A stretch of 64,000 nt of DNA from an uncultured Candidatus Saccharibacteria bacterium (GTDB lineage Bacteria > Patescibacteriota > Minisyncoccia > Minisyncoccales > JAGMDC01): positions 53,286 through 117,285 of the forward strand of contig CAZTQA010000002.1 in the NCBI GenBank assembly GCA_964615205.1, read 5' to 3'. This document shows, in pieces, positions 27,488 to 44,064 of this stretch (its first letter is position 1; every line of letters starts with the position of its first letter). The notes under the pieces are model-generated. The model had not been told where the DNA came from, searched no databases, and was given only the letters and a program-made list of their open reading frames with translations. The translations under genes and the position numbers were made by a program.

Positions 27488-29164
27488 TTATTTTAGTCTT
27501 TCTTTGATATCCTTAATTTCTTTTTCAATTTTTTCCCTACTAATCCGTAAGGCCTCACTAATATGTTGATAAGCCTTTTTTTCCTGTTCGTTAAAACCTG
27601 GCTGATTGTCAACCATTTCAATCCTTTTAACTACCTCCTTTTCCAAAGAATCAAAGTTCTTTTTAAGCGATTGTTCTGCCTCCCAGGCCTCTCTCGTCAG
27701 TATCTTTTTATTCTTCTGATTCTTGCCATAAAAATATAGCATTAGGGCCATTCCAATAATCAAAATTATGAAGAAAACTAAAGACAGGTTCTTAAAACTA
27801 ATCATTAACTGTCCGAGAATAATTCCATTAAAGAAAACTTCTATTTTCTTTTCTTCTGAATAATTACTAATGGCTCCTCTTTGGTCTTGGGCCATAACAT
27901 ATAAAGAATAAATGCCTGGCTTTAACAGTTCCTTAGTGGAAAAGGACCACTCCCCCTGCTCATCACTTGGAATTATCCATTGCTTTACTTCCTGATTATC
28001 TTTTTTAAGCAAAATGACGATTTCAACATTGAACAAAGAGCTACCCTGAAGATAAAAAGTTTCTTCTCCAGCCATATACTCTTCCGGCCAGACAATAATT
28101 TGAGGAGTTTCTAATGGCTCTATGTTTATAAGCGATTCAGTTTGAGCAATATTGCCAGCCTGATCTATTGCCCTAACAACAATCCGATGGCTGCCCGGCT
28201 CCAATAAAGACAAAGAAACAGAACCAATCTGGGCTAGCATTAAGTCAAAGAAATCGGCCTGGTCTATCTTCACCTTGTAAGCGTTTATGCCTGAAGTTTC
28301 ATCAAAAGTTTCAAAATAGAGATTGGGTTGTGGATTAGTCTGGTCGCCGCTGTTATCAATAGTTATTTCAAAAGAAGAAGGCGGTAAAGTATCAACCTGA
28401 ATCTTGTAATGGCTTGTCTCTAACCAGCCATCATCATTGGCTAATCTTAAATGAAAATACCAAACACCATCATCTAATCCATAATATTTTGTTGACTGAA
28501 TAACGCCCTCTGAAGATTCATCAGGAATTGTTTCTGGATCCTTATCTAAAACAAAGCTTACTTTCTTAATATCCTGGTTTAAGGTCCATTCAAATAAAGG
28601 TGAATTATTGTTATACCAACTGTCCTGCTTAGGATGAGTAGAAGAAAAAATACCAGTTGAGGAAGTTTTTACATCCTCAAAGATAAGATATTTTGCTTTT
28701 TTTAAATAACTTAAAACGTTCGTTCCTTTGCCGTCATCAGCTAAAATTTGGGCATCGCCAAAATTAAGCTCTATATCGCCTTTCTCTTTTGCTTTAAATT
28801 CAATAGTAATTATTTTTCCTTGGCCTTGAAAGCCAGGCGTAGGCAAACCGCCGGCAAAATTTATACTGCCTTTAGTATCAGAAAAGCTTGGTTCTTCTGG
28901 CCAAAGAGAAAAAATAGAATTATCTTTAGAAAGAGAAAGAACCTCTAATTTATCTGTTGGAAAATAGATTACTGCTTGGCTAGCATTAATAGGAATAAAG
29001 TTACTATCAACCATTACTTCTATAGAGAATTTTTCTCCCATCTTAAAACTCTTGCTGGTTGGTGAAAGAAATAAAGAAGCATTGCTGCCTTCAGCTACTG
29101 CAGGCAGTCCGCTAAGTACCACGAATAAGACACTAAATACCGCTAATAATAGATTATTTCTCAT
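27488..29164 (-). CDS. Secreted surface protein, paralogue 1 of 4: cohesin-like N-domain, Ig-like middle domains, C-terminal TM anchor and cytoplasmic coiled-coil tail
   Basis: signal peptide; N-domain shared across the four paralogues ('...ILADDGKGTNVLS'); motifs 'DGVWYFHLR', 'VDTLPP' and 'AIDQAGN'; C-terminal TM helix followed by a Lys/Glu-rich tail. Confidence 0.5.
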   Translation of the reverse strand: MRNNLLLAVFSVLFVVLSGLPAVAEGSNASLFLSPTSKSFKMGEKFSIEVMVDSNFIPINASQAVIYFPTDKLEVLSLSKDNSIFSLWPEEPSFSDTKGSINFAGGLPTPGFQGQGKIITIEFKAKEKGDIELNFGDAQILADDGKGTNVLSYLKKAKYLIFEDVKTSSTGIFSSTHPKQDSWYNNNSPLFEWTLNQDIKKVSFVLDKDPETIPDESSEGVIQSTKYYGLDDGVWYFHLRLANDDGWLETSHYKIQVDTLPPSSFEITIDNSGDQTNPQPNLYFETFDETSGINAYKVKIDQADFFDLMLAQIGSVSLSLLEPGSHRIVVRAIDQAGNIAQTESLINIEPLETPQIIVWPEEYMAGEETFYLQGSSLFNVEIVILLKKDNQEVKQWIIPSDEQGEWSFSTKELLKPGIYSLYVMAQDQRGAISNYSEEKKIEVFFNGIILGQLMISFKNLSLVFFIILIIGMALMLYFYGKNQKNKKILTREAWEAEQSLKKNFDSLEKEVVKRIEMVDNQPGFNEQEKKAYQHISEALRISREKIEKEIKDIKERLK

Positions 29165-30455
29165 ATAATTTATCTTTGATTTCCTTGCTATGATTATTTG
29201 TTTTCTTTTTTATTTCTTCTAAGTTTTTTCTTAATTTTTGTAAGGCCCTATTTTTTCGCCACCATAATAAAATTATTCCTATAACTAAAAGGATAATCGT
29301 CAAAAGTAATAAGATTACTTCATGCCAATTAAGATAAAGATTTAAAATGTTAAGGCCATTTTTGGAAATATAGAAAAATTTTCCAATAGGTATGACTTCA
29401 ATTTTCTGGATGCTGTCTCGGTAATTGCCAGCCGCATCAAATGCCCTAACTATTATCTCATACTCACCAAATTCCAAAGAAGGCATTTTATAAGGAGCAT
29501 TAACTTCTACAAAAAAGATCTCTTTTTGATCTATTAAATCAATATATCTTAACTCATAATGGTTTATTCCAGAAACAGCATCAGTAGTAATAAATCTAAC
29601 AATCGGCTCTTTAGAAACAGAAGCCGGCGAATGTAAAACTGGATCAAAAGACAGTTCAAAATCAGCTGGAGGAGTAGTGTCAACTTGAACAACATAGCGA
29701 CTAATACCGCCCCAAACCTTTCCTTTTTTGGCTTTTATAGAAAAATACCAAATGCCGTCAGCTAAATCACTAAAAGAAACTGAAGTATAATCGCCTTCTG
29801 CTAAATTATCTGGCTCATTATAATAATTAGTACTGATATCATAACTAAAAGCATTGACCAAATCCTCTTTTTCCCAATTAAAAGTAGGATTATTATTTTT
29901 ATACCATTTATTCTGGTCAGGATGAGTTGAAGAAAATACTTTCGGCCCTTCTGGCGGTGGAATAATAAGAGCATAAACTCCTCTGCCCAGAGAACTTAGA
30001 ATATTGGTCCCCTTACCATTATCTAAGAGAATCTGGGAAGAATCTAAAAAAGAAATTTTTGTTTCCCCAGGAGCAATAGCTCTAAAAGTAATAGTAGAAA
30101 CCAAGCCAGAAGAGGTATTAATTCCTGGCGAGGGAATACCGCCCTGAAAAGAAGCAAACCCCTCAATATTAGAATAATTGGGCTGGCTAATCCAAACCGA
30201 AATAAACGATTTGCCAGTTGTTGGACTGGCAATTTGCAGTTTTTTCGGATCAAATTTAAAATCAACTTTTACAGCATTGATATTGTTGTTGCCAGTATTA
30301 ATAAAAACAGAAACATCAAAAGTACTGCCAATATTAAAAGTGCCTTGGCTGGGTGAAAAATATAAAGAAGCACCGGCTCCCTTTACTGCAAAAGGCAATC
30401 CACTGAATATCAGTAATGAAAGAATGAATATCAATAATAAATTAATTTGTTTCAT
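29154..30455 (-). CDS. Secreted surface protein, paralogue 2 of 4 (cohesin-like N-domain, C-terminal TM anchor)
   Basis: same architecture; 'QILLDNGKGTNILS', 'DGIWYFSIK', 'VDTTPP' and 'AFDAAGN'; overlaps its neighbours. Confidence 0.5.
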   Translation of the reverse strand: MKQINLLLIFILSLLIFSGLPFAVKGAGASLYFSPSQGTFNIGSTFDVSVFINTGNNNINAVKVDFKFDPKKLQIASPTTGKSFISVWISQPNYSNIEGFASFQGGIPSPGINTSSGLVSTITFRAIAPGETKISFLDSSQILLDNGKGTNILSSLGRGVYALIIPPPEGPKVFSSTHPDQNKWYKNNNPTFNWEKEDLVNAFSYDISTNYYNEPDNLAEGDYTSVSFSDLADGIWYFSIKAKKGKVWGGISRYVVQVDTTPPADFELSFDPVLHSPASVSKEPIVRFITTDAVSGINHYELRYIDLIDQKEIFFVEVNAPYKMPSLEFGEYEIIVRAFDAAGNYRDSIQKIEVIPIGKFFYISKNGLNILNLYLNWHEVILLLLTIILLVIGIILLWWRKNRALQKLRKNLEEIKKKTNNHSKEIKDKLYEK

Positions 30456-31639
30456 TTCTTAAGAATTCTCCACATTATTATTATTGGAGTTAGAAACATT
30501 ATTGAAACTACTAAAACGATCAGCCACCAGGAAAAAAGCTTTCCTTTTATCTCCAATCCTTTGTTCTCAATATGGGAAACCAATGGTGTCATCAGTCTAA
30601 AACGGGCTTCAGCTTCTCTGTTATTGCCGGCTTTATCAACTGCTTTTATTATAACATTGTATTTTCCAGCTTTGATAAAAGGTACTTTGTAGGGACTAAT
30701 TTGCTCTGAAAAAAAGGAAGGAAATGTTTCTGGATTACTTAAATCGCTGATACCTACTTCATAATGGTCAACGCCAGAAGCATCATCTTTTGCTTCAAAA
30801 TAGACCATAGTTTGGTAACCAACCAAACGTGAGTAGGTTTCTACTTTAGGACTGAATTCATGGGGTGGCGTTGTATCTATCCTCACAGCCACAGTAGAAG
30901 TTTGACCCCAGACATCGTCTTTTTTCTGGCGGATGTGAAAATACCAAATACCATCTTTGGTACTGGGAAAGGAAATCATGGTTGTTTCTCCCTCGCTCGT
31001 GCCATCTGGCCGGTTGTTAGGATTCTGGTCAAAAATCCATGAAAAATCAGTTGCTCCTTTTTCTTTTTCCCAACTGAAACTTGGACTGGAATCGGTATAC
31101 CAGACGTTAGGATTGGCATGGGTCGGAGAAAAAACTTGAGGACCTTCTGATGCCGGAATTAAAATTTGATACTCGCCATTAATTTTATTAGTCAAAATAT
31201 CAGTTCCTTTGCCATCATTCAAAAGAACCTTGGATCCGTCTTTGAATTTTATCTTCGCTGTTCCTGAAGCAACAGCCCGAAAAGTAATTGCAGAAACCAA
31301 GCCAGCTGAAGTAGTAATGCCTTCCCTCACACCTCCCTGAAAATTGACAATGCCTATTTCGTTGGAATAATTAGGCGGTATAGTCCACTGGGAAACAAAA
31401 GAATCGCCAGTGGTTGGAGAAGTAATTTGCAAAATCTCTGCTGGAAATTCCAGTTCAGCCCAAATCACATTAATATCATTGCCTTCGGTATTTAAAAAAA
31501 TAGAAACCGTAAAAGCACTTCCTACCAAAAAACTACCCGAAGAAGGAGAAAGATAAAGAGAAGAACTTGCACCTTGTGCAATAGTTATTAAGCCAAGACT
31601 AAAGATTATAATAAAAAATATTAAAAATGATTTATTCAT
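30452..31639 (-). CDS. Secreted surface protein, paralogue 3 of 4 (cohesin-like N-domain, C-terminal TM anchor)
   Basis: 'KVLLNDGKGTDILT', 'DGIWYFHIR', 'IDTTPP' and 'AVDKAGN'. Confidence 0.5.
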   Translation of the reverse strand: MNKSFLIFFIIIFSLGLITIAQGASSSLYLSPSSGSFLVGSAFTVSIFLNTEGNDINVIWAELEFPAEILQITSPTTGDSFVSQWTIPPNYSNEIGIVNFQGGVREGITTSAGLVSAITFRAVASGTAKIKFKDGSKVLLNDGKGTDILTNKINGEYQILIPASEGPQVFSPTHANPNVWYTDSSPSFSWEKEKGATDFSWIFDQNPNNRPDGTSEGETTMISFPSTKDGIWYFHIRQKKDDVWGQTSTVAVRIDTTPPHEFSPKVETYSRLVGYQTMVYFEAKDDASGVDHYEVGISDLSNPETFPSFFSEQISPYKVPFIKAGKYNVIIKAVDKAGNNREAEARFRLMTPLVSHIENKGLEIKGKLFSWWLIVLVVSIMFLTPIIIMWRILKK

Positions 31640-32771
31640 TTTTAGAAATTAGAAATTTTTTAAAAATCCAAAAAACCACTAACAAAATGATAATGATTAA
31701 TATAAACAAATAGATAACTTCTGTCTTTTTCTCTGGAATATATTCTGCTATTCTTTCATTGCCTGCCTGGTCAACTGCTTTGACAACAATCTTCGTTTTT
31801 AAATCCTGGTCTTCTAATAAATAGGGACTGGTAATTTTTTTAAAATCCTTATTGCCTTCTTTAATTTCATAATAATCTATTCCTGAAGTTTTATCGGTGG
31901 TGCTAAAACTTAAAAAATACTTTCCTTCAAATATGGCTGGTTCCTGACCAATCTCCAAATTAAATTCTTGAGGCAAAGTATTGTCTATCATTGCCCGATG
32001 AGAAACAGCTTCTGACCAATCTTTGTCCGAAAACTTCTGTTTTAATGTAAAATAATAGATGCCGTCTTCAAGATCCGCGTATTTCATATCACCCACCCAA
32101 AATGATTCATCTCCTTCTGGTTTGTCGGGAATTTCATCTGGCTGGGCTAAAGGATCACGGCTCAAAAGATAGCTGTATTCAGCTTCTTCATTTAAATCCC
32201 AGTGGAGACGAAGAACATTAAACTTTGACCACTCATATTGACTAGGATGAGTATTAGAATATATTTCAACTAAATCTTCTGGTTTTTCAATAATCTCATA
32301 ATCACTCTCAAGAAAATGTAAAGAAGAAACTGTACCTTTACCATCATTTAATAAAACTTGAGAACTATCTTCAAAATCAATTTTAGTTTGAGAAACCTGC
32401 TTAGATTTAAAAACAATTCTGCCAACTAACCCCTGACCATTAAATCCATTAGGCACGCCGGCAATAAAGGATATTTGATTTTTGGAAATACTCGGCTCTT
32501 TAGCCCAGAGGGTTAAGAAAGAACCGCCTTTATTAAATTCAATAAACTCTAACAATTCATCAGGGTAATTTAAATCTATGCCTACGGTATTGATTTCTTC
32601 ATTTTCGGTATCCAGCATCAACTCAAGAATAAAAGAATCATTCTCGTAAACAGTCTGCCCCTGTGGCAGGAAATAAAGAGTAGAAGCTAAAGCTATATCA
32701 GCAATAATAAACAAGAGACAAGTGACAAGGGATAAGTAACAAGTTTTTGATTTTAAACTGTGACTTTTCAT
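31632..32771 (-). CDS. Secreted surface protein, paralogue 4 of 4 (cohesin-like N-domain, C-terminal TM anchor)
   Basis: 'QVLLNDGKGTVSSL', 'DGIYYFTLK', 'IDNTLP' and 'AVDQAGN'. Confidence 0.5.
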   Translation of the reverse strand: MKSHSLKSKTCYLSLVTCLLFIIADIALASTLYFLPQGQTVYENDSFILELMLDTENEEINTVGIDLNYPDELLEFIEFNKGGSFLTLWAKEPSISKNQISFIAGVPNGFNGQGLVGRIVFKSKQVSQTKIDFEDSSQVLLNDGKGTVSSLHFLESDYEIIEKPEDLVEIYSNTHPSQYEWSKFNVLRLHWDLNEEAEYSYLLSRDPLAQPDEIPDKPEGDESFWVGDMKYADLEDGIYYFTLKQKFSDKDWSEAVSHRAMIDNTLPQEFNLEIGQEPAIFEGKYFLSFSTTDKTSGIDYYEIKEGNKDFKKITSPYLLEDQDLKTKIVVKAVDQAGNERIAEYIPEKKTEVIYLFILIIIILLVVFWIFKKFLISKNE

Positions 32772-32808
32772 TTTTGATTTTTGATTATTTTAGTGTAGGT
32801 TGACTACG

Positions 32809-33753
32809 TCAACCTGTCCAAAAGTACATCATAATGCTAAAGTCTGTCAAATTAACTATACCATCTTTATTTTGGTCAGCACAGGTATTGGATTTTCCCC
32901 ACCAATAAAGCAAAATGCTGAAATCAACCATATTGACTTTGTTGTCATGATTAAGATCAACTCCTGAACAAGGATGGGCTTCCATATAAAAACTTAATTC
33001 ATTGGAAAATTCACTCACCAAACCTTGAGGAGAAACAACTTTGGCTTTAACTGAATAATTACCTTCTTTGCTTAAAACACTTGAATCAAAAGAATAAAGC
33101 CATTTTCCTTTCTCGTCGGCTTGAACGGTTTTAGAAATATTGGCTAAGGAATTAATAAAAACAGTCATTTCAGATTCGGACGCGCTATAACCAAAGATAT
33201 CCAAATCTCCCCCCTGGTAAATATTATTTGCGTTTAGTTCAATAGTGGGCGGGAAAAATATGTTTGAGAAAGTAGTTGTAGTATCTCTATTGAGAGAAAT
33301 AGTAAAATTTAAAGTGGGTGATTTTCTATTTTCTTCATCTTCTGCATATAAACCAAACTGCCAAACGCCTACCGGAATTCCAGTTAATTTCAAAGAAAAA
33401 TTTCCTGAAGAGTCAGCTAATCCAGTTTTAGCCACCACATTGTTTCTCATAACAGCAATAAAAGCATTGGGGTAAGCTGCTCCTTTGAACACAACATTGG
33501 CATAATAGGTTATTGTTCCGCTAACGCTCCCGCCTCCAGAAGGCGGAGGCGTTGGTGCGCCGCCCTCAACAGTAGCTGAAACACTCATCCCGCTTTCAAC
33601 TGGCTGGGCTTGAATTTTTTGACTAAAAACAAAAATAGTAAAGAAAACTAAAAATAATAAAAAAACGGTTCTTATGGATAAAAAAAACCGCCAAAAGGAA
33701 AAACTTTTTTTATAATTCAAAAAATTGTTTGTTTTTTTGTTTAAAGGAAACAT
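32809..33753 (-). CDS. Secreted dockerin-containing protein (carboxypeptidase-regulatory-like beta-sandwich domains plus a C-terminal type-I dockerin)
   Basis: signal anchor; two canonical Ca-binding dockerin repeats 'DLNHDNKVNMVDFSILL' and 'DQNKDGIVNLTDFSIMM'. Confidence 0.7.
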   Translation of the reverse strand: MFPLNKKTNNFLNYKKSFSFWRFFLSIRTVFLLFLVFFTIFVFSQKIQAQPVESGMSVSATVEGGAPTPPPSGGGSVSGTITYYANVVFKGAAYPNAFIAVMRNNVVAKTGLADSSGNFSLKLTGIPVGVWQFGLYAEDEENRKSPTLNFTISLNRDTTTTFSNIFFPPTIELNANNIYQGGDLDIFGYSASESEMTVFINSLANISKTVQADEKGKWLYSFDSSVLSKEGNYSVKAKVVSPQGLVSEFSNELSFYMEAHPCSGVDLNHDNKVNMVDFSILLYWWGKSNTCADQNKDGIVNLTDFSIMMYFWTG

Positions 33754-33761
33754 TCATTATT

Positions 33762-34724
33762 TTAAACAGATGTCTTTTCTCCCTTCACCAATACCTTCAC
33801 AGCCAGTTTCCATCTCTTTCTGGTTTTAAAGAAAAAGATAAAAATAAGCGCTAAGCCAACAACAATTCCCAAGATTATCTTCCAGGGCAAAACCCAGAAA
33901 GTGATAACGCGAGAATCTATATTCTGGTTGGACACCCCGTAGACCCCGAAGATAGTGGCTGTATATTTCCCAAACAGCCATTTAGTGTCCCATTCTGCCT
34001 TAATCTTTCTGACAGCTCCCGGCATAACATTTTCCTGCGGAAATTCCAGTTCTTTAACATTATTGTTAAACCAGTTAGCAATCACTATATATCCTTTTGG
34101 CTTGACATGAACAGTTCCCTTGTTTTCAAATCTTATTTCAAAGGCCACGGGCCCGTACTCTTGGAAGGAAGATGTTGAAAAATCTTTCACGCTAAGTTTC
34201 TCTTTTAAATCCCCTGCCACCATTAATAGAACAAGACTTCCTGTTTTTGTTGAAATGACAGCTCCGGTTCCATCTTCCTGCATAGAACCGGTTATTCCTA
34301 CTAAAACAGAACCGTATTTTCCGCCTGGCTCTGCATTTTGAGGTACTTCTATTATGAAATTAACTGTTTGGTCTCCTTTCCCTTCTAAGGTAAACTCTTC
34401 TGGTGTTATGGTTATCCATTTGCGGAGAGAATAGGTTGTGTCTTCTTCCTGTTCAGAGGTGGTGACTACCCGCCCCTCTTCTCCTATGGCCACAAAGTTT
34501 TCTGCCTCCATTTTTATAGAAATAGCCGCGTCTGAAAAATTAGACACTTTTAGTGTATTGGCAATTATATCTCCTGGATTGGCTGTAAGTTCAAAAGTCA
34601 AAGGAGAAACTGTAACGCCCGGCCCCTGGGCATTAACCTGAAAAGCTAAAACCAATCCTATAAGACCTACACTTATTAAAATTAATGATTTTTCCCAATT
34701 CATTTTAATGGGTTTTCTTAGCAA
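33762..34724 (-). CDS. Cell-surface beta-sandwich protein with C-terminal TM anchor (DUF916/CscA-like topology), paralogue B
   Basis: signal peptide; C-terminal 'WVLPWKIILGIVVGLALIFIFFFKTRKR'; paralogous to the 35994..37070 protein. Confidence 0.45.
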   Translation of the reverse strand: MLRKPIKMNWEKSLILISVGLIGLVLAFQVNAQGPGVTVSPLTFELTANPGDIIANTLKVSNFSDAAISIKMEAENFVAIGEEGRVVTTSEQEEDTTYSLRKWITITPEEFTLEGKGDQTVNFIIEVPQNAEPGGKYGSVLVGITGSMQEDGTGAVISTKTGSLVLLMVAGDLKEKLSVKDFSTSSFQEYGPVAFEIRFENKGTVHVKPKGYIVIANWFNNNVKELEFPQENVMPGAVRKIKAEWDTKWLFGKYTATIFGVYGVSNQNIDSRVITFWVLPWKIILGIVVGLALIFIFFFKTRKRWKLAVKVLVKGEKTSV

Positions 34725-34804
34725 AAAACTGACCTAAAGTCAACCCTTAATCCTCCACTAAAGTAAAGAATCAAGGGTTAAGCTTTAAAATTTAAAAGAA
34801 TGAC

Positions 34805-35953
34805 TTAATAGGTCGGCGTAGCAATAAAAACAAGGGTATCAGTATAAGTTCCAGCTGGAGTAGTTGCGGCAATGGCTGCATACAAAGCCACCTCAACAAT
34901 ACCGCTGCTGACAACCCCGGATGCAGAAGCAATTTCCTGGTTGCTGGTGCTTATTATCCCAGTAGCAGTCTCATCTGCGAACGTATTTTCAGTTAAAGTA
35001 GTTCCACTGGAAGTATATAAAGCATATCCCTCTGTTCCATCCGCAATATCATTTGCATTGTCAGCTTCAATTAACTCCGTTGTACTAGAACAGTATAATC
35101 CTGCATTTGTTGTACCGTCACCCGTGCTCCTAGCCGTAACTGAAACTCCACCACCACCATTTGATGAAACAGTAAGCTGGAAAGGAGAAGAATTAGAACT
35201 AGTATCACCAGCTGCATTTTTAGTAGCCCAGGTATCATCTGTAGCTCCACCTGTCCAGGTTCCAAAACCAACAGCGTAATCGTCACATGAGAAAGTCAGA
35301 TATTCCTCAACGGTTCCAGTAACTCCTACCCCGGCAAGCATGGCAACCCGAGCTGCTCCAGATTCATCTGATGTTGTTACAGTAACAGAACAAACATTAC
35401 TGTCGTCTCCTGTACCGCAAGTGGCTGTTGCCGGGTTTGTGATATGGGCTGTTCCTCCTGCTACCGAACCAATCTCTATAGTAATCGGTTCCTCATCAGC
35501 AATAGTTGTTCCAGTACAAAGAGTAAAAGTAATCGTGCTTGTTCCTATTCCAGTAACACCCAGTTCATCATCAACACAAGCGCCTTCGTCAAGAGTATAA
35601 TCATCTGAATCATCAGCAATGTCTATATCTGCAAAAACCACGCTAGCAACATTAAAATCGGCTTCAAAGGCAACTTGTATGGTATCACTGTCTGTTAAAG
35701 CACCAGCTTTAATAGTGAAAGCAATCGTGTGATCTGAAGCAGTGCCAAACCGCGAATCTGATAATGTGTCTTTGACGCTGGCTAAAGTGGCTTCTGCGTT
35801 TTCAGTAATTAATAAAAACGAGAACACCAAAGTACCCATGCAAACAAGCGCAATAATTTTTTTACTTAATTTTTTTACCTTTTCTGGCATTTTTTTAGAA
35901 AAATTTAATCTTGCCTGCCGACCTTTTAATTTTAAACAGGCACATAAACACAA
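34805..35953 (-). CDS. Thr/Gly/Asp-rich secreted surface protein with conserved C-terminal motif '..TYTDTLVFIATPTY'
   Basis: signal peptide (the likely real start is Met22, near 35890); T/G/S/D-rich beta composition; C-terminus shared with the 1240-aa giant. Confidence 0.45.
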   Translation of the reverse strand: MCLCACLKLKGRQARLNFSKKMPEKVKKLSKKIIALVCMGTLVFSFLLITENAEATLASVKDTLSDSRFGTASDHTIAFTIKAGALTDSDTIQVAFEADFNVASVVFADIDIADDSDDYTLDEGACVDDELGVTGIGTSTITFTLCTGTTIADEEPITIEIGSVAGGTAHITNPATATCGTGDDSNVCSVTVTTSDESGAARVAMLAGVGVTGTVEEYLTFSCDDYAVGFGTWTGGATDDTWATKNAAGDTSSNSSPFQLTVSSNGGGGVSVTARSTGDGTTNAGLYCSSTTELIEADNANDIADGTEGYALYTSSGTTLTENTFADETATGIISTSNQEIASASGVVSSGIVEVALYAAIAATTPAGTYTDTLVFIATPTY

Positions 35954-35993
35954 TCATTAGATTATATCATAAAAGAAAAGATAAAAGAAAGTG

Positions 35994-37070
35994 TCAATCT
36001 GTGGAAAACTTTTTTCTTGTTAAAATGACTTTCGCGGCTGCTCTAATTCTTTTCCTCATTAAGATCAAAATGACAAGGACAAAAAGAATTATTAGGAAAA
36101 TTTTCCATGGGAAAATCCAAAAGCTGATATACTTGTCTATCTGGTTATTTCCAAAATTCATTATTAAATGGGCTTGAAATTTGCCCCAAAGTAAATTTCT
36201 AGAAATAAAATTAGAAATAGTTTCTGGCAGATATTTAGCAATTTTTTCTGAAAGCGAAGCTTTGAATTCAACCGGAAATCTGCGGATTTTGCCAGGCATA
36301 ATAGTGGTTTCAGCCACAATTGTTTCCCCTACTGTTCTGCCAGTCCAGGAAGTAATAACTAATTTGCCTTCTGGCTTGATATGGAAAAGGTCATTATTTT
36401 GAATACGCAAAGTAAAAGGCAGTTCGCTGGCACTGACAATAAAAAAAGGTTTTTCTTCCTTGGCTAAAGCTTTGGCAAACAGGCCGCTGGCGCTGGCTAA
36501 AGCATTTTCTAATTTCTGAAGATGGAAGTTTTCAGGAATATTAAACTCAACCACAGTTAAGGGTTCTGATGATCTTTGTTTGTCTTTCATATCAACGGAA
36601 AGCAGAAATAAAACACCAATTTCAGGAACAGCTTTAACTGTTTTATTTTCAAAGTAATAAGAAGGCAGTTTGGGTCCAAATAAGATAGTAACATAATATC
36701 CTCCAGCATTTACTTCTTGAGGGATATTGATTTCAAACTTAACTTTTTCTGACTGGTGGGGCTCTAAAATAAAATAAGGGTTTTCAATTTCAAACCAATC
36801 CCGCGGATTAACAGCTGTTTCCTCTGGAAAATCTATAGCTCCTTCCTCGCCCACTGCTTCAAAGTTAATTGTTTTGGCTTCAAAGGGTATGCTTAGATCG
36901 CTTTTATTTAACAAATAAATCCTGTCCTGATAATTCTGGCCTTTTTCCAACTCCAACTCAAAAATCGGCGGAGAGACAAAGATGTTTATTCCCTCATTAG
37001 CATGACATATTCCGTTAATGGATATTAACACCAAACTAACTAAAATTATTTTTAATATTGTGCTGTGCAT
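35994..37070 (-). CDS. Cell-surface beta-sandwich protein with C-terminal TM anchor (DUF916/CscA-like topology), paralogue A
   Basis: signal peptide; C-terminal 'FWIFPWKIFLIILFVLVILILMRKR'; 19-bp overlap with the upstream giant gene. Confidence 0.45.
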   Translation of the reverse strand: MHSTILKIILVSLVLISINGICHANEGINIFVSPPIFELELEKGQNYQDRIYLLNKSDLSIPFEAKTINFEAVGEEGAIDFPEETAVNPRDWFEIENPYFILEPHQSEKVKFEINIPQEVNAGGYYVTILFGPKLPSYYFENKTVKAVPEIGVLFLLSVDMKDKQRSSEPLTVVEFNIPENFHLQKLENALASASGLFAKALAKEEKPFFIVSASELPFTLRIQNNDLFHIKPEGKLVITSWTGRTVGETIVAETTIMPGKIRRFPVEFKASLSEKIAKYLPETISNFISRNLLWGKFQAHLIMNFGNNQIDKYISFWIFPWKIFLIILFVLVILILMRKRIRAAAKVILTRKKFSTD

Positions 37071-40000
37071 ATGAATATAAGCGTGGTTGAATAATCACCG
37101 GCTAATTGGGTGGTTGGAACCGAGGATTTAACAGTCATGCGGTAAGTGCCACCAGTATCTGCTTGGGAAACCGGCTGGCTGTAATCGCTAATAACATTGC
37201 CGGGGCTAGTAGAAGGAAACTTAGCATAGTTGCTGCCTGAATTGTAGCGGTCGGAACCTTCAACTAAAGGATCATTAGAAGTATAGCCAAATCCGCAATA
37301 GCTGCTGTTGTCTTTGCAATAGCCGCTCCATTCTAACGGAGAACTGTAAGTGCCAGAGAAATCATCTATATATATAGTAGAGGGAAAATCAACATGACGG
37401 AAAACATTAGGCGTATAAGCGCTTGAAGCCCAACTGGTTACCATGTAGCCATGGCTGGCACTGGTAGTCACCTTTAAATCAAGCCAGTCAGTACTGGTAA
37501 AGTTAGGCGATTCTAAAGTGCCGATTTCAAGTGTTGGCGGATCATCTGTATCGCTGTCAACAATCTCAAAATCCAGGCCTGGCCGCAGACCGCAATAGAA
37601 AGTGCCATAAGTTGGCGGATCATCTATGGATGGTTCAGTATTATTAGCATCAATATCTTCCCTGCGCCAGTCATAACTACCGCTGTCGCCAATAATATTA
37701 TCATGACCTCCTCCAGAATAATAATTGGAAATAACATACTTGTTATCGCCTGCCCACTCGTAATAATCATATTCTCCATAACTGGTCTGCCATTTCACAT
37801 ATAAATTATAGTAATAGAAGGTATAACCAGAAGAAGTTCTGGAATATTCCCTAATCCTAATAGCGCCATTATTGTTTGGCTGGGGAATCTTGCCATTGCT
37901 GTCAGTGCCAGTTTCCTGATAAGTTGAGGCACTGCCCCAGGAACCACTGCTATATTTCCAAACAGTTGGTTGGGGCGTGCCAGAGTTTTCAGAAATGACC
38001 ACATCAGTATCACCTGTATCAATATTAGCCAAAGTCCCAGCATCAACCAAATGCGCACCAACATACCAATCACTATTCAATGTCGCCCCAGCAGCCGGCG
38101 CAGCTGGCTCACTACTGCTATCTAAAACCGTATTCAAGGCAGTGACTGTGCCGGAATTGACTTTCATGTAATCTACCTTGGCTTCCTGGATAATTAATTC
38201 TGAACCAGTGTCATTGTTGAAATTCCAGGAACCAGAAGCTGGCGCGTAAGTGACAGTGGTCTTGTCGTTTAAAGCGCTCTCCCCGCCTTTAATTTCCAAA
38301 TTCTCTCCAGAACCAACTGTCACTGTAGCATTTTCTTGGATAGTCACTTGGCATTGCCGAGTAACTCCAGCACCATCAAAATCCTTGGCATATGACCAGT
38401 AATCAGTTGCACTGTCTGGCACAGCATAAGCGCCCCAAATAGATAAGTAGCCGTCATTAGCTGCGTGGTCCATTGAATACAAACTACCAGAAATATTATA
38501 GGTGGAAGCTGAAGAATCCCACATCCTGATATATTGGCCAGCGCTAACATTGATTGTTCCGTAAACATCACCGCCAATGTTTTTGATGTCATTAATGCAG
38601 TAGCTGCCTGAACCATCTAAGACTAAAATAGAACTGGTCCAGGTAGTTGATAAGCCACCAACATTGTTCTTGAATTGGCCTTGCACAGTAATTGTCCTGT
38701 CAGTAGCGTCAAAGCTGTTCAAGCTGGTCAAAGTAAAGTTATTGGTAGCCTTCAATTCATTGGTAGAGATCGTCCAACCTCCGCCAGAATTGTTAAAAAC
38801 AATATTGTAAAAAGTTTTGCCAGCAGCAGTGCCGTCAGTAACAATGGTTTCGCCGGTATTTGCTGAATCAAAGGTAACTGTGCCTTCTTGACTAGTGAAT
38901 GTGCCTGAATTAGACCAGGAACCTCCAACATTAATAGCATAATAACTGCCTGAAACATCTAATGTAGAATTAGCATTAGCAATAGTCAAATCATTTTCCA
39001 CATCAATAGCTCCGCTTAAGGTAACTGTATTGGCGCTGCTCTTGGCTACTTGCAAGTCATAGAAGTCATGATTTTCATCAGTGCCTCCTGGAGACAAAGC
39101 GCTGGCAGTTGTTTCATCAAAGACAACAGTAGTAGGATAAGTTTCTGATTCCTGGGCAGTAAAAGTAGCTCCTCCTGCTACTGTCCAGTCAGTGCCCAAA
39201 TTAATAATTGTGCCATTGCCAGGTTCATTAGCACCGCCAGATTCAGTGCAATCCAAAGTGCCATTAACTGTCACAAAAGTACCAATATTCAAATCCCAGC
39301 CATGAGTTTCAAATTTATCACCACTGGCTACTGTTAAACTGTCAGCTGTCATATCGCTCTTTAATTTGGTCACAGCTGGTGAATTTCCTATTTGTACTGT
39401 CCCCATATTCTCTTTAGTGCCATTTGAATCAGTAAAATAACGAGGATAAGTATCATCACCGCCGTCAAAGATTAGAGTGCCTGAACCTTTGGTGTAATCG
39501 CCACCGCTTTCAATGGTTAAATCTCCATAAACAGTTAAGCTATTGGTACTGCCAACGAAACTAGCAGCGTTCTTAATCAAGAAAGTGCTGGTGGCTGATA
39601 AAGTAGAATTGCCAAATGCCAGAACAGGATTATTAGTATCTGCTTTCAAAGTAACTGCATTAGTTCCATCACCAATTGTCACATTGTTATTAGCTACAAT
39701 GTTACCTAGAATTGTATAATTCGGCGTGCCGCTGGTTGGACTGAATTCCAAATTATAATAAGTGGTGCTGGTAATATTAGTAGCTGATGTACCAGTATAT
39801 TTAATTGTAGAATTGTTGTAAGTGAAAGTGCCATTCTTCACAAATGGCGTTGTTGACCCAGTCAAAGTAATGGTTTTATTAGACCCGTCAAAGATATGGT
39901 TATTAGTACTGCCAGCAATAGTTAAAACATTATTAACTGTAAAATCACTAGCAGCAGTAGTTGTGCCAGTTTCAGTGTTGTCGCCTAAAGAAAGATTGTA

Positions 40001-40774
40001 AAAAGTGATTCCTCCGCTACCGCCGCCGAGGTTGCCAGTGTCGAGAATAGTTGTTGTGCCAGCAGAACAGCCGGAACAAGTAATTGTGCCCGTTGAAGCA
40101 GTGGTTAAAGCACCGCCAGTGATATTCAGATTCTGGCTATTCAAAGCTAATTCTTGTGCATCAGCTACAGCTAAGGTATATGTTTTAACTCCAGTGGAAA
40201 GTTGAATCTTTGGCGTATCAGAACCTCCAGTAATGGAGACAATGCCAAGGTTTTGTTTAGTTCCATTATCATCTGCCCAGGTTTTGGTGCCGCTGACTGT
40301 CCAGGTCAAGGTAGCTGAATCACTCTTAGTCCAGACACTGGGTGAATTTAAATCTAAATTGCCTTTTAAGGTAATGGCTGGACTATAAGTATTCCAGTCA
40401 ATGGTTGGCGTATTGGTTTCATTACCAATAGTTAAGTTGCCATTAATGGTAATTGTTTGTGAACCAGTTGTAGCTAAATGATAAGTAGTATTAGCTGAAG
40501 GTTTTAATTCTAAATTATTAAAAGTGGTTTGCTGGATATCGCTTTCAGATGAGCCAGTGAATTTAACTGTATTACTATTAGCATTAAAGGTTCCTGAATT
40601 AATATACAAAGGTCTGGATGTACCTGTGCCAGAACCAGAAAGAGTCAGGGTTTCATTATCACCAGTATAAGTGCCAACTATTTCTAATTGGCCAGTGCTG
40701 ACATCAGCATCAGTGCCTGGTGCATAAGTATCTCCGGTATTAATGTATGTCTTGACTGTAGAAGCAGTGGACAA
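37052..40774 (-). CDS. Giant Thr/Ser/Gly/Asn-rich beta-solenoid-like surface protein (1240 aa) with no own signal peptide; probably the C-terminal continuation of the 40876..44028 gene; C-terminal motif '..DYSTTLIFICTAQY'
   Basis: TTG is the first in-frame start; the upstream reading frame stays open back to 40909 with the same composition; no N-terminal hydrophobic segment. Confidence 0.5.
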   Translation of the reverse strand: MSTASTVKTYINTGDTYAPGTDADVSTGQLEIVGTYTGDNETLTLSGSGTGTSRPLYINSGTFNANSNTVKFTGSSESDIQQTTFNNLELKPSANTTYHLATTGSQTITINGNLTIGNETNTPTIDWNTYSPAITLKGNLDLNSPSVWTKSDSATLTWTVSGTKTWADDNGTKQNLGIVSITGGSDTPKIQLSTGVKTYTLAVADAQELALNSQNLNITGGALTTASTGTITCSGCSAGTTTILDTGNLGGGSGGITFYNLSLGDNTETGTTTAASDFTVNNVLTIAGSTNNHIFDGSNKTITLTGSTTPFVKNGTFTYNNSTIKYTGTSATNITSTTYYNLEFSPTSGTPNYTILGNIVANNNVTIGDGTNAVTLKADTNNPVLAFGNSTLSATSTFLIKNAASFVGSTNSLTVYGDLTIESGGDYTKGSGTLIFDGGDDTYPRYFTDSNGTKENMGTVQIGNSPAVTKLKSDMTADSLTVASGDKFETHGWDLNIGTFVTVNGTLDCTESGGANEPGNGTIINLGTDWTVAGGATFTAQESETYPTTVVFDETTASALSPGGTDENHDFYDLQVAKSSANTVTLSGAIDVENDLTIANANSTLDVSGSYYAINVGGSWSNSGTFTSQEGTVTFDSANTGETIVTDGTAAGKTFYNIVFNNSGGGWTISTNELKATNNFTLTSLNSFDATDRTITVQGQFKNNVGGLSTTWTSSILVLDGSGSYCINDIKNIGGDVYGTINVSAGQYIRMWDSSASTYNISGSLYSMDHAANDGYLSIWGAYAVPDSATDYWSYAKDFDGAGVTRQCQVTIQENATVTVGSGENLEIKGGESALNDKTTVTYAPASGSWNFNNDTGSELIIQEAKVDYMKVNSGTVTALNTVLDSSSEPAAPAAGATLNSDWYVGAHLVDAGTLANIDTGDTDVVISENSGTPQPTVWKYSSGSWGSASTYQETGTDSNGKIPQPNNNGAIRIREYSRTSSGYTFYYYNLYVKWQTSYGEYDYYEWAGDNKYVISNYYSGGGHDNIIGDSGSYDWRREDIDANNTEPSIDDPPTYGTFYCGLRPGLDFEIVDSDTDDPPTLEIGTLESPNFTSTDWLDLKVTTSASHGYMVTSWASSAYTPNVFRHVDFPSTIYIDDFSGTYSSPLEWSGYCKDNSSYCGFGYTSNDPLVEGSDRYNSGSNYAKFPSTSPGNVISDYSQPVSQADTGGTYRMTVKSSVPTTQLAGDYSTTLIFICTAQY

Positions 40775-40875
40775 ATCTCCTGATGCAACTGTATAAAGTA
40801 CATCGGTATCTTCTCCTGAATCCCAAAGAGCTAATTTGGCATTTGTTACTGAAGTAGAAGTCTGGCTTTCTATCC

Positions 40876-43800
40876 TTAAAGTATCTTTGTATACATTAAT
40901 ACTAAAATACTAACATTTTCCCCATTAGACAAGGTCACTGAAACACCATCTTCTGTTTCTCCTTCCATATAAACTGAAATCAATTTGTTAGCAGCTGGCT
41001 CGGGAATATCAGCTACAGAAAAATAGCCAGTATCAGCATTGCAGGTGGTCGTGTAAGTTGTATCGTCTTCCACGCTGATTTTGACATTGGGAGTAGATCC
41101 ATCGCATTCATCCCACTTAGTAGGCGTGACGTCTTCATACATATAGCCGGAAATAGTGATGTTAGCTGGGCTATACTCGCCATCCAGTTCTATGGCTGTA
41201 ATGCGTATCATAAGATAATCAGGACCTTTGGATTTGCTGTAGCCCCAAGTAAAAAGAAGAACTGCTCCATCCCAAACTGTTTTATTATTGTTGCCCTGAA
41301 GAGTAAAAGGTTGAGTCGCCTTGGCGTAAGAGCTAGTACTAATATTAGTCCATTGGCAAATAGTGACTTGATTGGTCAAAGCAGCTCCTTCTTCTGATTC
41401 AAAGATTTGAGCGTAAAGAGTAACCTGATCATCGTCTCTAGCGCCAGCTGCTTTTACCACTACATCAATATTGAGCGAATCCATAGAAACAAAATCAGAA
41501 GGCATATTATCAAGGGTAAAGTATTGACTAGCATTAGTGGCATCATCATCATTTACCACATAGCTTGTGTCATTATCGTGGCTTTCAGCGTCATCATTGA
41601 CTGAATCCCAACAATCTTGATTAGCGGCAGCGCACTCATTGGATAAGCCTGTATTGAATGTATTCGTGTAACCATCTGAACTATCTGAATCAGGCCTTAT
41701 ATCAGACACAGGCATATCTGAAACAATCTGCCACTGCCTTGCTTCGGCAAAAATAAAACTTGTCTCTTGTTGCTTGTCACTAAATACAATACCGTCATTT
41801 GATCCAGTAGTAGTTTCTATAGATGTTATCGAAGTTGGACTTTGATAGCTGGTTTTGTTGGATCTAAATTCCAAAAGACCAAGAAAATATACATAAGGGC
41901 TAATATCTGGCGCATCAAATTGATAACTTAATTCATAAATCTGACCTGCTTGCCAATCAACATCCCAAGTAGTTGAACCAGTGATTTCAAAACAAGCTGG
42001 CACTTGTTCTATTATCTGGCCATTAAAATCCTGATTAGCTTTTACTTTTATGGTCATCTGATAATCAGCTGGCGGGTAAATTCTGGTTGGACCGATTCTT
42101 TCCACCTCAAAAGGAACTTTTTGCCAAACCTCAAAAGAATCTGTAATTTCATAACCATTATCAAGGTTGGTGAGTTTAATGTCGTAAATACCCAACTCCC
42201 CTGTTTGGTAATAAGAAAAGTAATCAGGTATATCAACAACATTATTGGGTCCGCAAAGACCTGATCTCTGCATTTCTGGATGACTAACACTTTTGTCAGG
42301 AGCAGTAATCTCCAATAACAAATTACTATCGCATATAGTATCGCCATTATCTGCTAAAGCAGCCATCTGCAGATAGGCCTGTTCTCCAGACACATATATT
42401 GATTTGTTGACATTAATAGCCAAAACTCCCCAGATAAAATCCTGTGTAAATTCTTTAACATCTCCGTCTTCTTCAATTTTTAAAATAATCTTGTAAAGGC
42501 CGGGCTTAAGATTCAGAGGTTTTTTAATTTTTACAGAAAAATCACCATTGTCTTTTTTAGAAACTTCTGTTTCAATTTCAGAATTTAGTTCATTGTAGAA
42601 ATTCTTGATTTCTATTGTCAGATTGACATCCTCCCAAAAATCATAGGCGCCGATTAGTTCTTCAATAGAATCAACAAAAGAAAACAAAATGTTTTTTTCT
42701 TTTTTATTATAGCGGAAATCAAATTCCGGCTCTTCTCTAGCTTGAAAATTCCTTTTAGAAGAAAGTTTGTTGATTTTAGGTTCCTCTTCTTTTTTCTCGT
42801 CATAAATTAGTTCTAGCCAAACAGCATCAAGATAAACCATTAGTCTTTCTGATGAATTGTTATTAGTTAAATAGCTGACTCTTATCTTTAAATTGTTAAT
42901 CTCCTGCCAATCAAAATCAGCTGGTAGACTAAAAGAGAAAAAGCCGAAATTTAAAGCATTGGAATATTCCTGGTTTTGATTAAAGGTAACCAGATTATTC
43001 CAGGACTGGTTATCTAAAGACCACTCCAATAATACCTGGTCATTTTCTAATTCTCTACCCTGGCTGGCAAAAGAAAAATTAACATTCATTTTTTGGATTT
43101 CTTTTGCTTCATCAAAAGCATCTTCCTTAGGTAGAGAAAAACTGGAAACAATCAAGCTTGCCTGTTCCGTAAAGATAACTACTTCTTCTTGTCCTTTGTC
43201 GCTTGTCTCTTGCTGGCTTGTTTCTTGCTGCCCCGGCATTTCTCCATCAACTGTTGGAAGAATGACTTCTACTCCCTCTTGAGGAGAAGAAATCGTTTCT
43301 TCTGAATCAACCATTTCTTTTACGCCTTCTAAGAATATAGTTGTAGTATTTACTGAAGATATACCCTTTTCACTAAAAATAGAACTATTTAACGTATCGG
43401 GTAGATTTAAAGTATCGGATAGTTTAATAAAAGCTGAATTCTGGCTATTAAAACTATTTAAATCGCTATTATTGCTTAAATCCAAAATTAAAACATTGTG
43501 TGGGTTCTGCCATTCTGTTCCTCCATTTGATTGAAGCGACCAAACAGTAGGAAAAACCTCTATTTTTTGCTCTTTTTTAGGAAAAGCGTAGATAACTAAA
43601 GCTGAAATACCGATAATCAAAAACACTAAAACGCTTGGCAAGGCATAATGAAGACCCTCTGAAAAGTTGTGCTTAAAAGCGGGAAGGAAACGAGATAGTT
43701 TTTTACTCCAAAAAAACTTCTTAATCTTTAAATTTTTACCTATTTTCTTTTCTTTTTTCTTCTTAATCTTGTAATTAAGAACTGTTTCAGGATTAATCAC

Positions 43801-44028
43801 CCAGGTTTTGCCTAAAGAAATTGATTTACCTTTTATTTTCTTGGTCCTTATCAAATATCCAATGTAATCAGAACTATAACCGGATAATTTAGCCGCTTCT
43901 TTAAGAGAAATATATTCGTCCTTCTTTCTTTTTATATCTTTTTTTCTTTTCATTTTATCGCGAGGGTCGAGATTTCTACAATTTTTCAACCATTCTCTTA
44001 TTTTAACAAATAAAAAAGAGCTGGACAA
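40876..44028 (-). CDS. Membrane protein with cytoplasmic excisionase/MerR-type HTH, one TM helix and a 900-aa extracellular domain; likely the N-terminal part of a roughly 2300-aa surface protein interrupted by a frameshift
   Basis: 'ISLKEAAKLSGYSSDYIGYLIRTKKIKGKSISLGKTWVI' matches the HTH_17 pattern; TM 'VLVFLIIGISALVIYAF'; the C-terminus runs in the +1 frame into the 1240-aa giant at a TAGTATT-TAGTATT duplication (about 40880-40905). Confidence 0.5.
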   Translation of the reverse strand: MSSSFLFVKIREWLKNCRNLDPRDKMKRKKDIKRKKDEYISLKEAAKLSGYSSDYIGYLIRTKKIKGKSISLGKTWVINPETVLNYKIKKKKEKKIGKNLKIKKFFWSKKLSRFLPAFKHNFSEGLHYALPSVLVFLIIGISALVIYAFPKKEQKIEVFPTVWSLQSNGGTEWQNPHNVLILDLSNNSDLNSFNSQNSAFIKLSDTLNLPDTLNSSIFSEKGISSVNTTTIFLEGVKEMVDSEETISSPQEGVEVILPTVDGEMPGQQETSQQETSDKGQEEVVIFTEQASLIVSSFSLPKEDAFDEAKEIQKMNVNFSFASQGRELENDQVLLEWSLDNQSWNNLVTFNQNQEYSNALNFGFFSFSLPADFDWQEINNLKIRVSYLTNNNSSERLMVYLDAVWLELIYDEKKEEEPKINKLSSKRNFQAREEPEFDFRYNKKEKNILFSFVDSIEELIGAYDFWEDVNLTIEIKNFYNELNSEIETEVSKKDNGDFSVKIKKPLNLKPGLYKIILKIEEDGDVKEFTQDFIWGVLAINVNKSIYVSGEQAYLQMAALADNGDTICDSNLLLEITAPDKSVSHPEMQRSGLCGPNNVVDIPDYFSYYQTGELGIYDIKLTNLDNGYEITDSFEVWQKVPFEVERIGPTRIYPPADYQMTIKVKANQDFNGQIIEQVPACFEITGSTTWDVDWQAGQIYELSYQFDAPDISPYVYFLGLLEFRSNKTSYQSPTSITSIETTTGSNDGIVFSDKQQETSFIFAEARQWQIVSDMPVSDIRPDSDSSDGYTNTFNTGLSNECAAANQDCWDSVNDDAESHDNDTSYVVNDDDATNASQYFTLDNMPSDFVSMDSLNIDVVVKAAGARDDDQVTLYAQIFESEEGAALTNQVTICQWTNISTSSYAKATQPFTLQGNNNKTVWDGAVLLFTWGYSKSKGPDYLMIRITAIELDGEYSPANITISGYMYEDVTPTKWDECDGSTPNVKISVEDDTTYTTTCNADTGYFSVADIPEPAANKLISVYMEGETEDGVSVTLSNGENVSILVLMYTKIL

Positions 44029-44064
44029 CAGCTCTGCTGTGGATAATTTTATCTAAAAAAATAC

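Follow-up and report, generated by a model that had tools for sequence, protein, structure and literature searches.

What does a bacterium build with a locus in which a threonine-rich (T-rich) surface protein is followed, twice in succession, by a protein anchored in the membrane through its C-terminus? The locus in question lies in a stretch of 64,000 nucleotides (nt) from an uncultured Candidatus Saccharibacteria bacterium (GenBank assembly GCA_964615205.1, contig CAZTQA010000002.1, positions 53,286 to 117,285), hereafter called the window, and its own numbering is used throughout. An earlier note, made from the sequence alone, had compared the two gene pairs with the WxL/Csc clusters of Gram-positive bacteria. 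The T-rich family appears from its sequence to be tied to the Pam pilins of the candidate phyla radiation (CPR), an alternative absent from that note, and we consider it probable that the region represents the core of a donor-strand pilus operon of a CPR bacterium, of the Pam type in a divergent form and similar to chaperone-usher systems except for the missing usher. The fibre would most likely serve as a thin adhesive surface filament of this ultrasmall (CPR/Patescibacteria) bacterium. Homologies, domain layouts, gene order, the pairing of subunits with chaperones and conservation peaks carry this reading.

Both tandem pairs were found in the order described earlier, with all four open reading frames (ORFs) on the minus strand:

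40774..37052, minus strand, giant ORF, C-terminal part (1240 amino acids, aa)
37070..35994, minus strand, anchored ORF A (358 aa)
35953..34805, minus strand, T-rich ORF (382 aa)
34724..33762, minus strand, anchored ORF B (320 aa)

Database homologues place the start of the T-rich protein, the putative major pilin, at M22 of the 382-aa ORF (361 aa) and that of anchored protein B at M8 of the 320-aa ORF (313 aa). The operon is wider than this four-ORF region and extends over about 27488-44028 on the minus strand.

Comparative data set and thresholds

For the comparative set, one genome per species was scanned with the alignment of the anchored, chaperone-like proteins, which gave 175 relatives, and 80 loci, labelled almost entirely as Patescibacteria lineages, were taken for the counts. 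The T-rich family was sampled with 26 word-index homologues; conservation counts come from the top 145 representatives, and family size from an exhaustive profile search with representatives at 50% clustering. The published Pam system is that of Troman et al. (2026; bioRxiv 10.64898/2026.03.03.709456), with the NCBIfam families NF058578, NF058579 and NF058581. Curated cut-offs are 55 bits for NF058581 (CPR_Pam_pilin_C), 300 bits for NF058578 and 27.3 bits for PF06030, and the Pfam cut-offs for Cohesin and Dockerin_1 are 24.1 and 22.9 bits. Statements on Pfam, sortase and usher matches in the cluster rest on the nine cluster proteins scanned, and the checks for DUF916, DUF3324 and PapD cover 38 aligned homologues of the anchored proteins (E up to 1).

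The C-terminal domain of the T-rich proteins

The features that bear on the relationship between the giant and the 382-aa protein are the following:

37055..37510, minus strand, pilin-type C-terminal acceptor domain of the giant (family profile E 4e-10, hidden Markov model (HMM) positions 47-179)
37055-37096, minus strand, C-terminal strand of the giant, DYSTTLIFICTAQY
34805..35890, minus strand, putative major pilin (361 aa from M22) with signal peptide, N-terminal beta-sandwich, linker and C-terminal domain
35291..35332, minus strand, inter-domain linker of the pilin, GVGVTGTVEEYLTF, proposed donor strand and second conservation peak
34808..34849, minus strand, C-terminal strand of the pilin, TYTDTLVFIATPTY, proposed groove-edge strand and the highest conservation in the family

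The two T-rich proteins had been reported to end in near-identical strands. Indeed, BLASTP matches them over 58 aa in exact register at their C-termini (E 0.004). The likeness is not confined to the strand, however: because the C-terminal-domain profile of the 382-aa family finds the last ~150 aa of the giant, the common element is a domain of approximately that length. The C-terminal strand has the consensus A-G-x-Y-x-x-T-[LIV]-x-[FY]-[IV]-x-T-x-x-[FY]-COOH, with Y at position -13 in 137 of the 145 top representatives and a terminal F or Y in equally many. The family numbers 3,461 representatives, and its conservation is highest at this strand, with a second peak at the linker DDVTVTATVDETLTF. 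In the AlphaFold2 (AF2) model of the pilin (mean predicted local distance difference test, pLDDT, 83) two all-beta domains are joined by a coil of lower confidence; coil predominates at linker residues 184-197, and pLDDT averages 68 over residues 181-190 and 77 over residues 191-200.

The earlier note had also proposed a search of other CPR genomes for the C-terminal signature, which might have turned out to be a generic beta-strand of unrelated proteins. Within the window the motif is confined to these two ORFs. Its strict form is present in 102 of the 2366 ORFs of the 80 related loci, and since 95 of these match the domain profile and the other seven adjoin chaperone genes, the motif is not a generic strand.

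The link to the Pam pilins is made by the family as a whole. NF058581 is matched by 16 of the 26 family members, the best being P0022 (39.5 bits, E 5.7e-10, over the whole model), and pilins of Saccharimonadia with 149-168 bits on NF058581 are likewise picked up by the C-terminal-domain profile of the family. As the pilin and the giant of the window miss the NF058581 cut-off, their membership of the Pam group rests on transitive homology and synteny. When PDB sequences were searched with the two proteins and the two family profiles, no informative match emerged.

Two other kinds of protein with this domain were observed in the related loci. Short pilins of ~210 aa (L017, L019-L021, L023, L028-L030, L032, L034-L036, L040-L042) consist of a signal peptide, a TVSATV strand and the C-terminal domain only, and end in ..TLTLT..P/F. 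In the Saccharimonadia Pam loci L049, L057, L058, L067, L076 and L083, ORFs of ~190 aa lie on the opposite strand (about 8200-8800), match the C-terminal-domain profile weakly and end in ..Y.A[VA]PQTD. A sortase-dependent pilus was also considered and rejected: the subunits end in the motif itself and have no LPXTG-type tail.

Membrane-anchored chaperones

35994..37070, minus strand, chaperone paralogue A (358 aa) with signal peptide, two immunoglobulin (Ig)-like domains, hinge insertions, transmembrane (TM) helix at 36057-36122 and basic tail
33762..34703, minus strand, chaperone paralogue B (313 aa from M8) with DUF916/WxLIP_PGBD domain, second Ig-like domain, TM helix at 33828-33899 and basic tail

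The near-identical TM segments and basic tails first seen in the anchored proteins belong to paralogues that align from end to end (28% identity, E 6e-32). Both enter the membrane with ..FWIFPWKI.. or ..FWVLPWKI.. (F-W-x-x-P-W-K-I), followed by the TM helix and the basic tail, and compared with B, paralogue A carries a hinge insertion of ~38 aa and a second insertion of ~20 aa. Of the profile checks suggested in the earlier note, the one for DUF916 was positive: PF06030 (WxLIP_PGBD) matches the 320-aa protein at 28.1 bits and all 38 aligned homologues, and the 358-aa protein gives 18.6 bits, which is below the cut-off. The other two were negative, as neither DUF3324 (PF11797) nor PapD was matched by any of the 38 homologues, and the WxL profile PF13731 found none of the 26 T-rich family members and neither of the window proteins. 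In the AF2 model of the chaperone (pLDDT 79.7) there are two Ig-like domains, a long hairpin of low confidence and the TM helix. Its top Foldseek matches in the PDB are the WxL-interacting protein (WxLIP) structures 9i1y and 9i25 of Enterococcus faecium (E 4e-12), followed by CfaA, FimC, Caf1M and CsuC (E about 1e-10). The anchored proteins are most likely related to the WxL-interacting proteins of Gram-positive gut bacteria. The Saccharimonadia chaperones match DUF916 consistently, below the threshold, and NCBIfam holds no chaperone family that matches either these or the window chaperones.

These results leave room for a WxL/Csc-type complex that is not filamentous, in which each DUF916 protein clamps one partner, large or small, at the cell surface by strand complementation and no polymer is formed, in line with the current model of the Firmicutes WxL clusters. 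This we regard as rather unlikely, though it is the strongest competitor of the pilus. The above-threshold DUF916 match and the WxLIP structures at the head of the structural matches speak for it, and so does the arrangement of a large protein, a small protein and an anchor, which is common to both systems. On the E. faecalis plasmid LR962156.1 the WxL cluster has the order large WxL protein ending in EYSTTITWNLVEGP, small one ending in TYTTTIVWNLSEGPGTK, WxLIP; the C-terminal strand is similar to that of the window, with partner ends EYSTTITWNLVEGP and TYTTTIVWNLSEGP compared with DYSTTLIFICTAQY and TYTDTLVFIATPTY. In addition, AF2 work on WxLIP-WxL pairs predicts insertion of a strand, the DUF916 hairpin completing the beta-sandwich of the WxL partner (PMC10599100). 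The partners themselves, however, do not follow. Besides the missing PF13731 and DUF3324 matches, hhalign aligns the CPR C-terminal domain with WxL over the last ~45 columns only (P 0.003, probability 10%, or 2.5% with the short pilins), and comparisons with the WxL alignment, the large-WxL C-terminus and the neighbour of a Clavibacter DUF916 gene reach the terminal strand only (P 0.003 to 0.4). The pilin family is tied to Pam pilins, for which filaments have been seen by electron cryo-microscopy (cryo-EM), and the presence of pilins with donor-like and acceptor elements next to acceptor-only and donor-only proteins is the layout that polymerisation predicts. The comparison drawn in the earlier note thus holds for the anchored protein and for the logic of the cluster and fails for the T-rich partners and for DUF3324. 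Because the partner domains are unmatched by the WxL profile and the profile comparison ends with those ~45 columns, we file the system under Pam pili; as the alignments reach the terminal strand only, we claim no homology of the partner domains, although a deep relationship between Pam and WxL systems is possible.

Two further observations concern the anchored proteins. Orthologues of chaperone A with approximately 507-526 aa occur in L006 (8293-9819), L008 (7108-8631), L010 (1403-2956) and L040 (7196-8776), and those of L006 and L008 have an N-terminal PD-(D/E)XK nuclease domain in the same open frame (PDDEXK_3, 101 bits in L008), which may reflect a gene fusion, a wrongly called start or the insertion of a gene. 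Relatives of the anchored proteins are also found on plasmids of Actinobacteria and Deinococcus (tblastn matches H1, H2, H6, H7 and H9), annotated as DUF916 in Clavibacter and Cellulosimicrobium and as hypothetical in Deinococcus. On the Clavibacter phaseoli plasmid NZ_CP040796.1 (L088, 6101-7915) the DUF916 gene is preceded by a gene for a 209-aa secreted protein ending in GDYSSTITLSLFE and has GH43 glycosidase genes around it, a setting reminiscent of the carbohydrate-linked surface complexes envisaged for Csc.

Gene order and pairing in related genomes

Chaperone homologues are found in metagenome-assembled genomes (MAGs) of Paceibacterota, Parcubacteria, Uhrbacteria, Moraniibacteriota, Berkelbacteria and Saccharimonadia. 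The closest relatives come from Paceibacterota/Parcubacteria MAGs (61-66% identity), and many Saccharimonadia follow at 32-40%. A gene with the C-terminal domain lies directly upstream of 86 of the 119 chaperone genes in the 80 loci, and the complete order giant, chaperone, pilin, chaperone is kept in at least 15 genomes. In the other genomes, all 16 chaperones encoded after a giant are closer to A than to B, and 70 of the 71 encoded after a pilin are closer to B. The pairing of chaperone and subunit is orthologous and ancient. Furthermore, the chaperone homologues of Saccharimonadia (tblastn E 1e-42 to 1e-55) are encoded directly downstream of pilins that score 149-168 bits on NF058581.

The same data bear on the suggestion that the motif common to the C-termini directs sorting or secretion and is read by an envelope machinery, in the manner of a beta-signal or a sorting tag, with anchored neighbours that are unrelated adhesins or scaffolds. 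The motif is always at the extreme C-terminus, with the F or Y end counted above, and is common to proteins of very different size, as a signal might be. Yet the similarity spans a folded domain and not a tag, the motif occurs almost exclusively alongside an adjoining chaperone-like gene with lineage-specific pairing, and no processing enzyme or sortase-type signal was seen in the nine cluster proteins, which leaves this explanation highly improbable. As a partner-binding element, which the earlier note had also considered, the strand fits what would be expected by analogy from donor-strand biology.

The giant protein

40876..44028, minus strand, N-terminal half of the giant gene: helix-turn-helix (HTH), TM helix and large ectodomain; aligns to the L006 orthologue
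40879..40909, minus strand, frameshift zone joining the two halves, with a T4 run at 40904-40907
37052..40909, minus strand, C-terminal half, rich in T, S, G and N (ORF plus the frame open to 40909)

The 1240-aa ORF lacks both a start of its own and a signal peptide. Its frame is open up to 40909 (a segment of 1285 aa) and there overlaps the end of an upstream ORF of 1050 aa. A single orthologue of 2418 aa in L006 aligns first to the 1050-aa ORF and then, unbroken, to the start of the 1285-aa segment; the N-terminal half of the giant matches its residues 7-1154. Since one orthologue spans both halves and the open frames overlap, the giant is one gene of ~2,290 aa (about 43953/44028..37052), interrupted by a 1-nt frameshift that lies between 40879 and 40909. 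With a single T added to the T4 run, the ORF would be continuous again. The frameshift may reflect an error of assembly, a pseudogene or phase variation, and exact-product look-ups of the N-terminal half found no record for a cross-check.

The giant has no donor-like linker strand ahead of its C-terminal acceptor domain. This is usual for giants in the related loci, where the profile match starts at median HMM position 28 in giants as against 2 in pilins. Large and variable, the giant is a candidate host-recognition adhesin.

Its N-terminus consists of an excisionase/MerR-like HTH (HTH_17, E 0.028) followed by a single TM helix (residues 133-151). This N-terminus is kept in L006 (973-1500), but the orthologue of L008 begins with an ordinary signal peptide. 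A surface adhesin that carries a DNA-binding-like cytoplasmic module (window 43500-44028, minus strand) is a puzzling combination.

In a scan for promoters and terminators only one signal rose above background, a terminator-like hairpin with a T-run (44017-44035, minus strand) where the giant gene has its 5' end; it overlies the nominal TTG start. Translation probably begins at the ATG at 43953, and the transcript of the upstream cation-efflux gene probably ends at the hairpin.

Terminator candidate and cohesin proteins

32809..33753, minus strand, terminator/anchor candidate (314 aa) with signal peptide, donor-like strand, Big_6, Big_13 and type I dockerin
33562-33591, minus strand, donor-like strand GMSVSATVEG of the 314-aa protein
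27488..32771, minus strand, four cohesin-Ig-TM paralogues (379, 395, 433 and 558 aa) with Cohesin, Big_13 and C-terminal TM helices

In the 314-aa protein the signal peptide and the donor-like strand are followed by a PPPSGGG linker, Big_6, Big_13 and a type I dockerin (Dockerin_1, 23.4 bits), and there is no acceptor domain. It matches the PamR family NF058578 weakly (21 bits, E 1e-4) and ends in a dockerin, not in a TM helix. At the same position in other genomes there is either a protein of this form or one in which a pilin N-terminal domain precedes strand, linker and Ig-Ig-dockerin module; P0027 is such a fusion (E 9e-38). In the terminator-like proteins an [IV]S[IV][ST][AV]T[IV]E strand forms the start and a Pro/Gly linker comes next, and an automatic check found an alternating-hydrophobic stretch just ahead of the Pro/Gly linker in 29 of 45 of them.

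The Cohesin profile gives 30.9 bits on the 433-aa protein, and Big_13 reaches 49 bits among the cohesin paralogues. We propose from this domain content that the four cohesin-Ig-TM proteins are the membrane docking sites of the dockerin subunit. In 39 of the 40 closer loci, a dockerin gene and a group of two to five cohesin-type genes come after chaperone B; in the mostly Saccharimonadia loci, dockerin is present in six of 30 and cohesin in four of 30.

Cohesins and dockerins might also indicate a cellulosome-like scaffold for surface enzymes or adhesins, with the T-rich proteins as cargo and the beta-sandwich proteins as Ig spacers, and both profiles indeed pass their Pfam cut-offs and four cohesin paralogues stand in a row, but with the dockerin on one cluster protein only and on neither T-rich protein, the module missing from most Saccharimonadia versions that keep the pilin-chaperone core, and no catalytic domains in the cluster proteins scanned, there is very little to recommend it.

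Proposed assembly of the fibre

For the donor-strand pilus we infer strand insertion, polymerisation, assembly order and cohesin-dockerin anchoring as follows. All components would be exported by Sec. Every subunit would have a C-terminal Ig-like domain short of one strand, with the conserved C-terminal strand lining the open groove; the C-terminal motif would then be the groove-edge strand that pairs with a strand of the chaperone or of a neighbouring subunit. The two membrane-anchored PapD/WxLIP-like chaperones would serve one subunit class each, A the giant and B the major pilin, and hold the subunit by a hairpin strand inserted into its groove; in the 313-aa form of B this hairpin lies at residues ~127-162. 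The giant, because it has the acceptor domain and lacks the donor strand, would start the fibre as the tip adhesin. Pilins would be added at the membrane by donor-strand exchange, the linker (GVxV[ST]ATVDE) of each entering the previous subunit. The 314-aa protein, in which the same strand is combined with Ig-Ig-dockerin in place of the acceptor domain, would cap the fibre and dock onto the four cohesin-Ig-TM proteins.

Several points weigh against this model. The window pilin reaches no more than 13.9 bits on NF058581 (E 0.04), in an alignment that covers model positions 18-148 and ends at the C-terminus, and the C-terminal domain of the giant does not match that family at all. Foldseek with the whole chain of the pilin model returned generic two-Ig-domain adhesins only. 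The published PamR has a TM helix and no dockerin, and the Pam preprint makes no mention of cohesin, dockerin, DUF916, WxL or Paceibacteria. In this assembly a frameshift interrupts the giant gene, and the HTH and TM helix of its product, unless cleaved, fit poorly with a position at the tip.

Other features of the window

ORFs of 86-135 aa at 34872-35279, 35340-35600, 37795-38073 and 38344-38616 are antisense or out of frame and lie wholly inside the pilin and giant genes. They have no significant match to the pilin-domain profiles and are probably not genes. No Rfam family was found within the window. Elsewhere in the window (7820-11326, minus strand) a protein of 1168 aa has ComEA-like helix-hairpin-helix motifs together with a lamin-tail domain and a PQQ-type beta-propeller, and may be a surface protein for DNA binding or DNA uptake.

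Comparison with known systems

As in the cellulosome scaffoldins, a type I dockerin is present on one secreted protein and cohesins are carried by membrane-anchored proteins encoded next door. The proposed role differs, as the module of the window would tether the base of a pilus and not assemble enzymes.

The classical chaperone-usher systems (Pap, Fim, Caf, CFA/I, Csu) have the same chaperone fold, as seen in the Foldseek matches above, and the same subunit classes, that is, an adhesin with a C-terminal pilin domain, a major subunit and a terminator. In classical pilins the C-terminal strand is conserved, a Gly lies some 14 residues from the end and an aromatic residue forms the C-terminus or adjoins it, and the short ~210-aa pilins of the related loci come close in layout both to these classical pilins and to the small WxL proteins. 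In contrast to the classical systems, the window has no usher and no outer membrane is involved (the nine cluster proteins gave no usher or PapD match in Pfam and the 26 family members no Fimbrial match), the chaperones are TM-anchored and not soluble in the periplasm, and the donor strand would be an internal linker of two-domain pilins.

In published WxL clusters, a large protein that has the C-terminal domain and a small one accompany a TM-anchored DUF916 protein (PMC10599100, PMC9772566). These clusters share with the window the DUF916 anchored protein with its C-terminal TM helix and its WxLIP best structural match, and the two partners, one large with N-terminal adhesive regions and one small, that end in a common domain. 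The C-terminal strands are similar as well (x-Y-[ST]-T-T-[IL]-x-[WF]-x-[LIC]). Unlike the WxL/Csc clusters of Lactobacillales and Bacillales with their DUF916-DUF3324-TM proteins, the window matches neither PF13731 nor PF11797 and has F, Y or L where W stands, F occupying the motif positions (FQL and VFI). Its partner protein contains, in addition, an N-terminal domain and a donor-like linker, two anchored paralogues are present per cluster, there is no LPXTG protein, and the host belongs to the CPR and not to the Firmicutes.

The Pam pilus of Candidatus Mycosynbacter amalyticus is the closest counterpart. Its filaments, observed by cryo-EM, are made of PamA/B held together by donor-strand exchange through the inter-domain linker; the other parts are the TM-anchored PapD-like chaperones PamC/D, the tip subunit PamT and the terminator PamR, whose two Fn3/Ig domains stand between an N-terminal strand and a C-terminal TM helix (bioRxiv 10.64898/2026.03.03.709456). 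Conservation in PamA/B peaks at the C-terminal strand and at the linker, as in the window family (bioRxiv 10.64898/2026.03.03.709456). Both systems are CPR-restricted, lack an usher and have a two-domain pilin in which a conserved linker joins an N-terminal beta-sandwich to a C-terminal domain, the latter Ig-like and truncated. They likewise share a pair of PapD/FimC-like chaperone paralogues, each with its TM helix at the C-terminus and one of them with hinge insertions, and a terminator, in the window a candidate, with an N-terminal strand, and in Saccharimonadia homologous chaperones adjoin pilins above the NF058581 cut-off. The window differs in the low score of its pilin on that family and in its acceptor-only subunit, an adhesin of ~2,290 aa with a chaperone lineage of its own, whereas Pam has the small PamT. 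Further differences are the dockerin that takes the place of the TM helix in the terminator, followed by four cohesin-Ig-TM genes, and the nearest relatives in Paceibacterota/Parcubacteria MAGs, which are outside the discussion of the preprint. ATP synthase genes were not seen among the neighbouring window ORFs scanned.

These comparisons matter because CPR bacteria live attached to host cells by means that are largely unknown, and the operon type recurs widely among them (3,461 pilin representatives, chaperone homologues in the lineages named above). To the Pam pilus the window adds a giant variable adhesin, two chaperone lineages tied to the subunit classes and a cohesin-dockerin module that could anchor the fibre; the giant-adhesin and cohesin-dockerin modules are unreported for Pam. 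One joint reading, more speculative than the pilus itself and offered tentatively, is that the CPR Pam pili, the WxL/Csc clusters of Firmicutes and the plasmid DUF916 clusters of Actinobacteria and Deinococcus represent one ancient usher-less donor-strand system of single-membrane bacteria, arranged around a membrane-anchored DUF916-type chaperone. The distal W-x-L strand would then correspond to the groove strand of the pilins, and WxL partners would be assembled, perhaps polymerised, by strand complementation and not simply stuck to peptidoglycan. CPR bacteria outside Saccharimonadia would have a subtype with a giant tip adhesin, a dedicated chaperone lineage and a base tethered by cohesin and dockerin instead of a TM helix. 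The operon itself offers a concrete link, open to test, from CPR pili to the WxL/DUF916 surface clusters, so far poorly understood, of enterococci, listeriae and lactobacilli.

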